Source: Methanobrevibacter sp. (GTDB taxonomy: Archaea; Methanobacteriota; Methanobacteria; Methanobacteriales; Methanobacteriaceae). From it: DNA of 32,000 bases. Location of the stretch: NCBI RefSeq assembly GCF_045646205.1, contig NZ_JAZRKF010000019.1, positions 96,379 through 128,378 on the forward strand. Direction: 5' to 3'. Below are positions 9,726-12,110 of this stretch, piece by piece. Position 1 is the stretch's first letter. Each line of letters begins with the position of its first letter. The position numbers and the translations under genes were made by a program. The notes under the pieces are model-generated. The model was not told where the DNA came from. It worked only from the letters and a program-made list of their open reading frames with translations, and made no database searches.

Positions 9726-12110
9726 ATGAACAAAACTAGTGACAATTTCAATAAATACATTGATGAATTTTTCAACAACATTGAATTATATGATGATATT
9801 CATAATGAACATAAATATAAGAAACGTTTAAAGACATATGTCGATAATTTCTTAAGTAATCAAACAACAGAGAATGCAAAGGAGATATATAAGTATTTTT
9901 TCATGATATACCAAATCAAATATGAAGATAAATCCGAAGGTTCAAGTTCATCAGAAGACGGGTCAAACACTCTCCTGAATCTTGTTGAGATAATGGGAAA
10001 ATATGAAGAAAATACTGGAGATTTGATTGATAAGCAGAGAGATCATTTTCTTCACTCAGTAAATGTATTCTTATTGGGTTTGGCAATATATTCAAAAAAT
10101 AAAAAATACAGGGATTATTTCAAAAAATATGTTCGTGAAAGTCCTTATGAGAAATATTATCGGATTGAAAATGAGAACAGTAAAAAAGAAAACTTAAAAA
10201 AAGATATTAAAAATAAACCTGAAGTTTCTAATGAAGAATTTTTATATCGCTGGGGAATCGCATCACTTTTCCATGACATTGGTTATCCTGTTGAAATTAT
10301 TGGAAAACAGATGAAAAAATTCATTAATGACGGGGTTAGATCAATTGATAACTCATACAATGTTGACACCGCTATTGACTTTAAGGATTTCAGCCGTTTC
10401 AACACAATTGTGAAAAGAAAGTCTGATTTTACTGATAAGTTTAGAAATGATTATCCTGAATCTAAATTTTTAAATTTATTCAAACCTACTCATTTAATGG
10501 CCTATAAAATTTATGAAGATTTAAAACCTGAAGAAGGATATTTGATTGAAGAAAATAAAAAATTACAAAAAATCGAAGAATCAAATAAAAATAAAAAGGA
10601 TTGTGAAAAAGAAAAATATGTCATAAAAGATAATATTGAATTAACTCCTTTAGTAAATAATCTGGACAATTTTGTTACAATTATGAAAAACAGTGGATTC
10701 ATTGACCATGGATTTTTCAGTTCAATATTGGTTTTAAACTCATATGGTTATTTAATTCAAAAATATAAAAGGACTTATGATTTCTTTTTTTATCCGATTG
10801 TGGACAGTGCATCTGCAATATTATTGCATAATTTCTTCCGCAATGTATTATTTAAAGATCCGTATAACGCTTCCAGTTTATCACCCGAAAAAAGTCCTAT
10901 TGCATTTTTATTAATATTGTGCGATGAACTTCAGGAATGGAACCGTAAGCCTCTGGGTGTTGTAGACAAGGAAAGAAACCATGTCGCTGATATAATCACA
11001 GACATTACCGAAGATTCATTATATGTCAAATATATAGTTAAAAGCGGACCTATGGGGTCTTCATTTTTAATTGAAAAAAAGGATTTGTTAGATAAAGTTT
11101 TAGATTTGCAAAAGGTATTTAAAGATGGTTTAACCATTAAAACGAATGTTGAAGATGACAATATAACAATGAAAGATATAACATATAGGGAAGCTAGAAC
11201 TCCAAATATTTTAATGACAACGATAGATAAGTTACCTGCTCAAATTTATGCATATTATTCAGAAATAACTGGCGATGACAAAGAACTTGAAAAGATATTT
11301 GAATCATTGACTCCTTCGGAACAATATTCCAATATGAGGCAGGCAAAATCCATTTCTAAAAATTTATCAATGATCGGTTGTGAAATTGCATTTAAATCAG
11401 ATAAAAGAGATGAATATATATTGTCGGATAATGAGATAAATGATTTGGCAATGTTTGAACACAAGGATTGGTGTAGTGAAAAAATAGAAGCCGGTTGGAG
11501 TCCGGGTAAGGATAAAGATGATAAAAAATTAATTCATCCATTGTTAGATGATTGGGAAAATTTAGATTCATCTGTTCAGGAGGATAATAAGAAAACCATT
11601 GAAAACCTTGTTAAAATTTTATCAAATGTGGATTTAAAAGTTGTATTTAATAAAACACGTTTATTAAGCATTGAATTGCATAATTATTATAATGAGGTTT
11701 TTAATTCGGATATTCCATTTGATTCATTAAGTGATGAGCAGAAATATTTTAATTATAAACAGGCAGATTTCATTATAAATTTCCTTAAAGAACATGGATA
11801 CAACATAGTTTTTGAAAAAGATGAGGGAATTCACATCACTGAATTCAACCCAAAAGAAATTGAATGTCTTGCTAAAAAAGAACATGAAAAATGGTGTGAT
11901 TATAAACGTAACCTTGGTTGGGAAGAAGGGGAGAAATCCGAAGAAGATAAAACCAATCCAAACATTTGCGAATGGAAAGACCTTGATGAGTCAACACGTG
12001 AATTTAATAAGAACACCATTAAAAAACTTCCAGATTTATGCTCAAATCAGGATGCTGGATTAAAAATCATAAAAGAAAATCCAGACTATCCTTTCCCATG
12101 TGCAGATTAA
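9726..12110 (+). CDS. HD-domain phosphohydrolase/nuclease-fold protein with two C-terminal (helical + RyR-domain) repeats (cassette gene A)
   Basis: HD-superfamily residues occur in order: RDHFLHSVNV (H110), ASLFHDIGYP (H183-D184), IDHGFF (H328), ILLHNF (H368), LILCDELQEW (D400). The module is interrupted by a Lys/Glu-rich insert. RyR-like repeat 1 is LAMFEHKDWCSEKIEAGWSPGKDKDDKKLIHPLLDDWENLDSSVQEDNKKTIENLVKIL (nt about 11433-11645). Repeat 2 is LAKKEHEKWCDYKRNLGWEEGEKSEEDKTNPNICEWKDLDESTREFNKNTIKKLPDL (nt about 11847-12050). Each is preceded by a ...Y(Y/A)...L(S/T)..(E)Q(Y)(S/F)N(M/Y)(R/K)QA..I...L...G helical unit. A GAGGGT RBS is present. Confidence 0.8.
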   Translation: MNKTSDNFNKYIDEFFNNIELYDDIHNEHKYKKRLKTYVDNFLSNQTTENAKEIYKYFFMIYQIKYEDKSEGSSSSEDGSNTLLNLVEIMGKYEENTGDLIDKQRDHFLHSVNVFLLGLAIYSKNKKYRDYFKKYVRESPYEKYYRIENENSKKENLKKDIKNKPEVSNEEFLYRWGIASLFHDIGYPVEIIGKQMKKFINDGVRSIDNSYNVDTAIDFKDFSRFNTIVKRKSDFTDKFRNDYPESKFLNLFKPTHLMAYKIYEDLKPEEGYLIEENKKLQKIEESNKNKKDCEKEKYVIKDNIELTPLVNNLDNFVTIMKNSGFIDHGFFSSILVLNSYGYLIQKYKRTYDFFFYPIVDSASAILLHNFFRNVLFKDPYNASSLSPEKSPIAFLLILCDELQEWNRKPLGVVDKERNHVADIITDITEDSLYVKYIVKSGPMGSSFLIEKKDLLDKVLDLQKVFKDGLTIKTNVEDDNITMKDITYREARTPNILMTTIDKLPAQIYAYYSEITGDDKELEKIFESLTPSEQYSNMRQAKSISKNLSMIGCEIAFKSDKRDEYILSDNEINDLAMFEHKDWCSEKIEAGWSPGKDKDDKKLIHPLLDDWENLDSSVQEDNKKTIENLVKILSNVDLKVVFNKTRLLSIELHNYYNEVFNSDIPFDSLSDEQKYFNYKQADFIINFLKEHGYNIVFEKDEGIHITEFNPKEIECLAKKEHEKWCDYKRNLGWEEGEKSEEDKTNPNICEWKDLDESTREFNKNTIKKLPDLCSNQDAGLKIIKENPDYPFPCAD

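Follow-up and report, generated by a model that had tools for sequence, protein, structure and literature searches.

The window analysed here, a stretch of 32,000 nucleotides (nt) from Methanobrevibacter sp. (contig NZ_JAZRKF010000019.1, positions 96,379 to 128,378), has a G+C content of ~29% and carries on its forward strand a gene for a 794-amino-acid (aa) protein that joins an enzyme-like N-terminal domain (the N-domain) to two modules of the RyR repeat family. A GAGG-type ribosome-binding site lies 7-8 nt 5' of its ATG, and an NCBI record identical to the protein (P0001) is entitled 'RyR domain-containing protein [Methanobrevibacter sp.]'. An earlier sequence-only reading had delimited the same open reading frame (ORF) and had described the product as an HD hydrolase core followed by a duplicated helical/RyR module; the ORF is borne out, and so is the overall architecture of an enzyme-like N-terminal domain followed by a duplicated module. 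Directly downstream lies a gene for a DUF4062-STAND protein, and the pair formed by the two genes is the main subject of this report. The features are as follows.

9726..12110, + strand: gene for the HD-like/RyR protein (HD-RyR gene), 794 aa, ATG start, stop codon at 12108-12110
9726..10022, + strand: N-terminal helical cap, aa 1-99
10023..10955, + strand: HD-like all-alpha core, aa 100-410
nt 10044-10055, + strand: candidate metal ligands H107 and H110, in RDHxxHS
10167..10229, + strand: low-complexity insert 1, aa 148-168, 71% K/E/N/D, low predicted local distance difference test (pLDDT) score
nt 10272-10277, + strand: candidate metal ligands H183-D184, in LFHDIGYP
10527..10634, + strand: Lys/Glu/Asn-rich insert 2, aa 268-303, 64% K/E/N/D
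nt 10704-10709, + strand: candidate metal ligands D327-H328
nt 10827-10829, + strand: candidate metal ligand H368
nt 10923-10925, + strand: candidate metal ligand D400, in LCDELQEW
10968..11165, + strand: ferredoxin-like beta-beta-alpha-beta subdomain closing the N-domain, aa 415-480
11223..11645, + strand: RyR module 1, aa 500-640, two leading helices and RyR core
11652..12074, + strand: RyR module 2, aa 643-783, second copy of module 1 in which the pocket is degenerate
12121..14010, + strand: partner gene encoding DUF4062, a STAND/NACHT-type NTPase and a winged helix, 636 aa, ATG 12121 being the likely start

The RyR modules are true members of PF02026. Pfam RyR matches two stretches of the protein (83.9 bits, E 9.5e-24; cut-off 27.4 bits), and no other family rises above noise in a Pfam scan of the 794 aa. 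Searching PDB sequences with phmmer returned Repeat12 fragments of RyR1 and RyR3 (best E 2.6e-8) together with the Bacteroides thetaiotaomicron RyR protein 3nrt/6uag. The same relationship emerges from the predicted fold: the top PDB neighbours found by Foldseek for a full-length AlphaFold2 model (pLDDT 78.9, built on a 56-sequence alignment) are structures of human RyR3 Repeat12 (9ls7, 6uhe and 9l9b; E 7e-6 to 4e-5, probability 1.00, target template modelling (TM) score 0.53-0.59). Given that the best of these alignments (E 7e-6, target TM 0.57-0.59) spans ~197 columns of RyR3 Repeat12, both modules jointly resemble one animal Repeat12 unit. The RyR repeats claimed by the sequence-only reading are thus confirmed by profile and by fold, as is the internal duplication at the very nucleotides it had named: stretches 11223-11645 and 11658-12050 encode sequences that are 33% identical over 133 aa (E 3e-18). 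Because the self-alignment covers 133 aa, the duplicated unit is the whole ~140-aa module, consisting of two leading helices, a strand and the RyR core.

What such modules might bind is suggested by two independent 2026 preprints, which report, with crystal structures and nanomolar affinities, that phage RyR-domain proteins bind or cleave signals made by TIR enzymes (PMC13232231; 10.64898/2026.06.04.730250); prokaryotic RyR repeats are therefore no longer functionally uncharacterised, as had been assumed. RyDEP is a glycosidase for 2' and 3' cyclic ADP-ribose (2'cADPR and 3'cADPR), whose catalytic dyad consists of H75 and D117, with W78 stacking against the adenine and H100 touching the phosphates; of eight homologues tested, six bind the signals, and those besides RyDEP act as non-cleaving sponges (PMC13232231). 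RyR Tad binds 3'cADPR with a dissociation constant (KD) of 43 nM, also binds 2'cADPR and cADPR, and contacts its ligand through H129/W132, K147/H154 and K170/D171 (10.64898/2026.06.04.730250). The contact residues follow a common spacing of His, Trp (+3), Lys (+18), His (+25) and Asp (+42) (PMC13232231; 10.64898/2026.06.04.730250). Human RyR3 Repeat12, judging from PDB titles, binds ATP/ADP in the same pocket.

At these positions module 1 has H579, W582, K597, H604 and N621, keeping four of the five, and module 2 has H720, W723, S738, N744 and N761, keeping the first two only. By this comparison of residues, module 1 appears to hold the fuller candidate pocket (H579, W582, K597, H604), and the second module is regularly the degenerate one in two-module members of the family. 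Among 106 RyR modules from the family, the His is kept in 102, the Trp in 100, Lys or Arg in 76 and the Asp in 63, with Asn replacing the Asp in 20.

The ~480-aa N-domain matched no Pfam, NCBIfam or PADLOC model, and scanning the complete protein with NCBIfam and PADLOC likewise gave no meaningful match. Modelled on its own, it reaches a pLDDT of 87.5 and a predicted TM score (pTM) of 0.91. The cap is conserved across the family at F15, F16, F42, A51 and Y55 and includes a disordered acidic/Ser loop at aa 65-80, and Foldseek finds the closing subdomain weakly similar to the C-terminal domains of MamM and YiiP. In alignments reaching down to 22-40% identity, H107, H110, H183-D184, Y187-P188, D327-H328, H368 and D400 are invariant or at least 90% conserved; in one homologue alignment H110, D184, D327, H328, H368 and D400 are invariant and H183 is conserved in at least 90%, and two other alignments agree. 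The ordered H...HD...H...H...D residues that the sequence-only reading had picked out therefore hold up, the putative metal-binding His and Asp residues being conserved across a divergent family. The long Lys/Glu/Asn-rich insert it had seen splitting this region is also real, at aa 268-303. However, this second insert is absent from 54 of 55 aligned homologues and found only in P0002 (88% identical), and the first is common only to P0002 and P0069. Both are lineage-specific low-complexity insertions and not family features, and we rejected a functional split of the domain by a low-complexity insertion common only to one 88% relative.

Several observations suggest that the N-domain is probably a very divergent HD-superfamily metal enzyme, a view that we hold with some confidence. 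Pfam HD (PF01966) is the sole family to recur below threshold, with matches at E<=1 in seven of 34 members and a best value of 0.0037; relatives reach only E 0.0037-0.044, under the 22-bit cut-off. The profile positions matched (2-72 in P0246, 2-40 in P0222, 4-40 in P0175 and 20-47 in P0207) belong to the start of the HD profile, and the matches lie over the region of motif I and/or motif II. Comparing a 112-sequence profile of the N-domain with a 123-sequence alignment of bona fide HD domains, hhalign gave a probability of 54.5% (P 1.2e-4) and aligned H110-S111 with the motif I 'HS' and H183-D184 with the HD in 'LxHDIGKP' of the CCA-enzyme HD profile. The highest-probability Foldseek matches of the N-domain (0.4-0.54) are to the C-terminal domain of exopolyphosphatase PPX, which has been described as HD-like.

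The assignment is probable but not proven. The hhalign alignment does not include the C-terminal motifs, and a three-sequence HD alignment, seeded from a canonical HD domain in P0216 whose homologue search gave one protein, aligned over 17 columns around motif II. The window protein has no PF01966 match at E<=1, two hidden Markov models (HMMs) of the N-domain found only chance matches among PDB sequences (malic enzyme, E 0.047; complex I subunit, E 1.1), and Foldseek searches of the N-domain model against PDB and BFVD gave no neighbour at E<0.001. Matches to YiiP/ZnT in Foldseek were rejected as relatives of the N-domain, being long-helix artefacts with a TM of ~0.1. Read strictly, the HD claim of the sequence-only reading fails, in that there is no significant Pfam or PDB profile match and no significant Foldseek neighbour; what stands is the motif conservation, the recurrent sub-threshold Pfam HD signal and the hhalign result at 54%.

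The N-domain could instead be a new helical fold whose conserved His and Asp residues bind a structural or sensing metal or a ligand, with any catalysis residing elsewhere, in an RyR glycosidase dyad or in the partner protein. We regard this as unlikely, while noting that it cuts across the other rival explanations considered below. In its favour, a confident model (pTM 0.91) has no significant neighbour, although the PDB is rich in HD structures; the window protein also lacks a Pfam HD match, hhalign is confident only around motif II, and in two family members a canonical HD domain is present besides this one. Against a non-HD fold speaks the six-residue H-HD-H-H-D pattern, which occurs in the right order, on helices, and does not vary even though the family is very divergent. 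The canonical HD signatures are matched in register by motif I (HS..V) and motif II (LFHDIGYP versus LxHDIGKP), the recurrent sub-threshold Pfam matches always lie over motifs I-II, and the PPX matches, to a domain described as HD-like, point the same way.

The family defined by this domain is large. A word-indexed homologue search returned 1193 proteins, 1659 clusters (50% identity) matched at E<=0.001, 145 of them at E<=1e-30, when 1.84 billion cluster representatives were searched with a profile, and at least 548 stretches of the family were confirmed in GTDB species-representative genomes. Among the matches listed, the hosts include many Methanobrevibacter, Chloroflexota (Anaerolineales, Pelolinea, Leptolinea), Bacteroidales and Clostridia (Oscillospiraceae, Lachnospiraceae, Peptococcaceae, Syntrophomonas, Sedimentibacter). 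Only two weak loci (28-29% identity) were found in 2.9 million viral contigs, and on account of this near absence we consider the family a host component. We accordingly rejected a phage-borne anti-defence factor as an explanation, since the family hardly occurs in viral contigs and its genes are paired with TIR genes on chromosomes.

The sequence-only reading had called for a survey of domain architectures and had considered prokaryotic RyR repeats rare. Fusions of the HD-like domain with RyR occur in 84 of 124 sampled representatives of the N-domain family, so that rarity no longer describes them. One RyR module is present in 59 (~570-600 aa), two in 24 (~750 aa), and one protein was scored as having three; the remaining 40 have no RyR module and are mostly stand-alone proteins of ~400 aa. 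TIR domains also join the family: P0140, P0154 and P0156 have two TIR domains followed by the N-domain and RyR modules, P0163 combines TIR, N-domain and RyR, P0190 combines TIR and N-domain without an RyR module, and further TIR, N-domain and RyR fusions lie in loci L018 and L077. In P0196 and P0201 the N-domain is flanked by RyR on both sides, and P0216 and P0249 (1271 and 1366 aa), which lack RyR, have a long helical middle and a far C-terminal, canonical CCA-enzyme-like Pfam HD domain. Given these varied architectures, the combination of N-domain and RyR must be old and widespread, and is no oddity of Methanobrevibacter. SLOG is the cADPR sensor of ThsA; a sub-threshold SLOG-type region (YAcAr, DprA) follows the N-domain and single RyR module of P0207 and P0222 (~760 aa). 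In the Methanobrevibacter locus L018, four family genes stand in tandem (9185-20238), one of which (12288-15491, 1068 aa) has two N-terminal TIR domains.

The partner gene most likely starts with ATG 12121, 10 nt after the HD-RyR stop codon, and the alternative GTG 12100 would overlap the upstream gene by 11 nt; the ATG is backed by alignment with a homologue, the L058 protein beginning MKWENVSVFISS and the window protein MCILVEWQKATVFISS. The sequence-only reading had recognised the STAND NTPase as a neighbour but had missed its N-terminal DUF4062 domain, a TIR-like NADase domain that matches its Pfam model above the cut-off (E 4.3e-12) and contains an S-L-T-E-I-E-I-E motif; this domain is the key to the proposed mechanism. 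Models of the STAND portion (ATPase_2, AAA_22, NPHP3_N, NACHT, NB-ARC) all score under their cut-offs.

The link to this neighbour turned out to be a conserved gene pairing. The genes of the closest archaeal relatives, P0008 and P0004 (56-58% identical), likewise have a DUF4062-AAA gene after them, 16 nt away in one case and overlapping by 4 nt in the other, and in L080 and L082 the pair is kept at 56-59% identity although gene order is permuted and the flanks differ. The window's DUF4062-STAND protein is also 43% identical over 617 aa to a protein of the Peptococcaceae locus L058 and 40% identical to one of L075, and both of these genes directly adjoin HD-RyR genes whose products are 34-35% identical to that of the window. 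The pair is thus kept across Bacteria and Archaea and is no coincidence.

The association extends well beyond direct relatives of the partner. ORFs were called in 80 sequences including the window, those within 4 kb of a family gene were clustered, and recurrent clusters were annotated. The largest neighbour cluster spans 30 loci, 25 of them bacterial, and includes the window's own downstream gene. All ten sampled members carry an N-terminal TIR or DUF4062 domain according to Pfam: five are TIR-LRR, one TIR-WD40, one TIR-SBP_bac_5, one DUF4062-NACHT-TPR and two DUF4062-NACHT-WD40 proteins, and two further neighbours outside these ten are TIR and TIR-LRR proteins. When TIR and DUF4062 HMMs built from the annotated neighbours were run over the loci, a gene of either type was found within 2.6 kb, and mostly adjacent, in 26 of 38 bacterial loci. 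Such a gene is co-directional with the family gene at a distance of 0-101 nt in 13 of these loci and divergent within ~530 nt in five; several loci without such a neighbour are short, truncated contigs. A canonical TIR_2/ThsB_TIR domain is adjacent in most bacterial loci. The TIR neighbours have an invariant Glu in an S-x-x-V-x-x-E-I motif and the DUF4062 neighbours a conserved S-(V/L)-T-E-x-E-I-E motif, which is consistent with active enzymes in both cases.

Two other kinds of gene recur as neighbours. In Chloroflexota the HD-RyR gene is directly followed by one for a ~600-aa protein of TrkA_N (Rossmann) and RyR domains (L040 2096-3874, L047 6937-8775, L054 11858-13609), a putative second RyR-carrying effector in a locus that also has a TIR gene. 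In L036, a DUF4231 gene (9012-9983; SLATT-type, two transmembrane helices) lies 6 nt upstream of an archaeal family gene. SLATT-type proteins are effectors in nucleotide-signalling conflict systems, and the presence of TrkA_N-RyR and SLATT/DUF4231 genes in the same loci is typical of multi-effector nucleotide-signalling systems.

Taken together, the genomic evidence suggests, at what we judge to be an even chance, that the product of the gene is the receptor-effector component of a two-gene, Thoeris-like or NLR-like immune module. Infection would cause the STAND partner to oligomerise, and its TIR-like DUF4062 domain would then cleave NAD+, releasing ADP-ribose (ADPR) or cyclic or derivatised ADP-ribose. 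The tandem RyR modules, which probably fold onto each other like the halves of animal Repeat12 and would thus form an intramolecular equivalent of the phage homodimer, would bind this NAD-derived nucleotide, module 1 providing the main pocket. Ligand binding would switch on the HD-like, metal-dependent phosphohydrolase, which may degrade an essential nucleotide pool or nucleic acid and so abort the infection. We favour this explanation because the RyR domains are identified significantly from both sequence and fold and phage RyR domains bind TIR products; because of the 26 of 38 bacterial TIR/DUF4062 neighbours, the TIR fusions and a pair kept across domains of life; because the partner enzymes look active, other RyR effectors occur in the loci and the window resembles a defence island (see below); and because the family is almost absent from viral contigs. 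Comparative data and the two RyR preprints best support the division of labour that the sequence-only reading had proposed, with RyR as ligand-binding regulator and the N-domain as effector.

If RyR modules receive NAD-derived signals, they need not do so in order to kill. The protein could be a terminator, buffer or scavenger of the signal. Its RyR modules would capture, and perhaps, like RyDEP, cleave the ADP-ribose-type molecule that the partner makes, and its HD-like phosphohydrolase would destroy that molecule, for instance through cleavage of the pyrophosphate. Either leaky signalling would then not lead to autoimmunity, or phages would be denied the ADPR from which they rebuild NAD+ (PMC13232231). 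That some RyR domains are glycosidases linearising cADPR with a His/Asp dyad fits such a role, and in single-module family members the two dyad positions hold His in 61 of 62 and Asp in 49 of 62; DUF4062 and TIR-NLR proteins, moreover, already own an intrinsic NADase effector. HD enzymes typically hydrolyse nucleotide phosphoester or anhydride bonds, as is well established, which would suit the destruction of such a product. However, the window protein has Asn and not Asp at the proposed general-acid position of both modules, no other conserved effector lies close to the TIR-LRR and TIR-WD40 partners, and the several RyR-fused outputs (HD-like, TrkA_N) at a locus fit receivers better than a single degradase. 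We consider a scavenging role unlikely.

The observations that weigh most against the proposed immune module come from the archaeal loci themselves. Counting the window, 37 of 42 Methanobrevibacter loci have no TIR/DUF4062 gene up to 10 kb on either side, and most of these carry two tandem paralogues. Such tandem HD-RyR paralogues (~750 and 787 aa) are found in most Methanobrevibacter and Methanosphaera genomes, at about 25 loci besides L002-L004, and in the latter (8001-12629) they are placed between aldo-keto reductase and ARMT1-like genes, a conserved, housekeeping-like setting. The 787-aa gene beside homologues was tried as a STAND partner and rejected, being a paralogue of the HD-RyR family. 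The tandem orphan copies of Methanobrevibacter are the main observation that a defence role would leave unexplained. Further points on the same side are the Asn (N621, N761) in both modules where phage binders have Asp, the lack of the phosphate-binding His in module 2 (N744 there), and the fact that Pfam found no TPR, WD40 or LRR repeat sensor in the 636-aa archaeal partner; the probable, and not proven, HD membership of the N-domain, with the null searches given above, belongs here as well. Finally, three other 2026 preprints show experimentally that DUF4062 is a TIR-like NADase and serves as the effector domain of Avs-like STAND defence proteins, the published enzymes making plain ADP-ribose and acting alone by NAD+ depletion; a downstream effector is therefore not obviously required. 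These preprints do not mention an RyR or HD partner.

Part of this evidence can be accommodated if the protein is a housekeeping, nucleotide-regulated phosphohydrolase whose RyR modules sense ATP/ADP or another adenine nucleotide, the adjacency of the STAND gene resulting from insertion into a variable island. On this view one would expect most genomes of Methanobrevibacter and Methanosphaera to carry one or two tandem copies, as they do, and likewise the shared setting of L002-L004 with no TIR/DUF4062 gene within 10 kb and the binding of ATP/ADP by animal Repeat12. Yet the 26 bacterial co-localisations among 38 loci and the TIR fusions would not be expected, nor would a pair kept at 56-59% in L080 and L082 despite permutation and at 35-43% in bacteria. 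We consider the housekeeping role quite improbable.

The surroundings of the pair in the window include the following two genes.

14050..14820, + strand: 256-aa predicted membrane protein, which accompanies the HD-RyR/DUF4062-STAND pair in the closest relatives; membership in the system uncertain
14846..16900, + strand: KAP-family P-loop NTPase, PifA-like, 684 aa (PADLOC PifA, E 2.8e-65); membership in the system uncertain

In L080 and L082 these two proteins are 59-71% identical to those of the window and their genes lie, in permuted order, upstream of the pair, whereas in the window they lie downstream. The pair, the membrane protein and the KAP NTPase may form a single four-gene unit or two modules that move together. 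Further downstream are a 499-aa DUF2828 and DUF7788 protein (18299-19798), two ORFs without a Pfam match (19847-20815 and 21039-21533), an AAA_14 and DUF4143 ATPase (23141-24346) with a near end-to-end match to the PADLOC candidate defence family PDC-S01 (E 1.5e-154), and a tyrosine recombinase (26502-27602; Phage_integrase, E 3.2e-14). The segment 22001-25000 differs from the remaining window in its very low G+C (0.22-0.26) and strong positive GC skew (0.31-0.38), and there are no tRNA genes in the window. The region has the look of a variable or defence island, as it holds a PifA-like KAP NTPase, a PDC-S01 ATPase and an integrase; the tyrosine recombinase, sited ~10 kb downstream, suggests that the 9.7-27.6 kb stretch is a present or former mobile island. 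Two very large repeat proteins, at 2158-5355 and 28265-31753, look like adhesin-like proteins of Methanobrevibacter. One, at 2158-5355, is rich in Asn and Gly, and its translation reads like beta-helix repeats; the other has Big_1, Big_3_5 and Chlam_PMP matches.

If the proposed immune module is true, it would provide a cellular function for prokaryotic RyR domains, which have so far been characterised only in phage counter-defence, and a new receptor-effector class for TIR/NAD-derived signalling, with RyR in place of SLOG/Macro and an HD-like domain in place of SIR2. Prokaryotic TIR-LRR/WD40 and DUF4062-STAND proteins might then relay a small-molecule signal to a separate effector, like plant TIR-NLRs, and signalling by NLR-like sensors would not rest on NAD+ depletion alone. 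The bacterial single-module versions (~580 aa) would also offer small, soluble and abundant models for ligands of Repeat12-type pockets, which bears on the action of adenine nucleotides, cADPR and drugs such as dantrolene at animal ryanodine receptors. The N-domain is of interest in its own right, as its 1659 clusters have no Pfam model and no significant structural neighbour by Foldseek in PDB and BFVD. A broader proposal, which we put forward as possible though somewhat short of even, is that RyR/Repeat12 modules are host receptors of TIR-made ADP-ribose signals in a widespread, unnamed bacterial and archaeal immune pathway, in which NLR-like TIR/DUF4062 sensors would signal to separate RyR-gated effectors, the HD-like domain being the commonest output, and that the phage RyR sponges are captured host copies. 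If so, the old idea that cADPR may act on RyR channels would gain a concrete structural ancestry. We found no description of an HD-RyR and TIR/DUF4062 system in the literature searched, and none linking cellular RyR-domain proteins with TIR, SLOG, Thoeris or DUF4062, only the two phage preprints.

Each component of the proposed system has known counterparts. Like the HD-superfamily phosphohydrolases (PF01966; HD-GYP, PgpH, Cas3 HD, SAMHD1), the N-domain has the ordered H...HD...H...H...D residues on an all-helical core; unlike them, it has an insertion of ~130 residues that separates motif II from the next conserved His, and it is extended by a helical cap at the N-terminus and a beta-alpha subdomain at the C-terminus. 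With the phage RyDEP and RyR Tad proteins the RyR modules share Pfam PF02026 and the pocket residues H..W and H/K (PMC13232231; 10.64898/2026.06.04.730250). However, those are small (~130-180 aa), homodimeric counter-defence sponges or glycosidases with Asp where Asn is found here, whereas the window gene encodes a 794-aa cellular protein whose tandem modules are fused to an enzyme-like domain and which stands beside a candidate signal-making enzyme. Animal Repeat12 (RY1&2) is the best match both in structure (Foldseek E 7e-6) and among PDB sequences (E 2.6e-8), and there, too, two tandem repeats form one unit, which in RyR1/RyR3 is an adenine-nucleotide and drug site; the prokaryotic module is longer (~140 aa, with extra leading helices) and is found in a soluble, enzyme-like context instead of a Ca2+ channel.

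The partner resembles the DUF4062/NIR STAND defence proteins (PsAvs2, Swarozyc, Vulcan/Vesta, Evangelion) in having an N-terminal DUF4062 domain followed by a STAND NTPase. While the bacterial neighbours add TPR or WD40 repeats, the archaeal protein has no C-terminal repeat sensor, and the published proteins are described as acting by NAD+ depletion without an HD-RyR partner. The closest parallel for the pair as a whole is Thoeris, in which the TIR signal synthase ThsB acts with the effector ThsA, whose SLOG or Macro domain binds the signal: a TIR-type, putatively NAD+-consuming enzyme again stands beside a putative sensor-output fusion protein, and the bacterial TIR neighbours give weak ThsB matches and keep the catalytic Glu. 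In contrast to Thoeris, the sensor is RyR/Repeat12 and not SLOG or Macro, the output is HD-like and not SIR2 or transmembrane, the TIR partner carries LRR, WD40, TPR or STAND parts and is thus NLR-like, and the window's partner has DUF4062 instead of a canonical TIR domain. The PADLOC v2 models of ThsA/ThsB did not match the window's HD-RyR protein, PADLOC gave no match for the bacterial orthologue in L064, and with no ThsA-type effector present the system falls outside the known Thoeris types; PADLOC v2 contains no model of such a system. We infer from these comparisons a form of immune signalling by NAD-derived molecules in which both the receptor and the output domain are new, and which would work much like plant TIR-NLR signalling.

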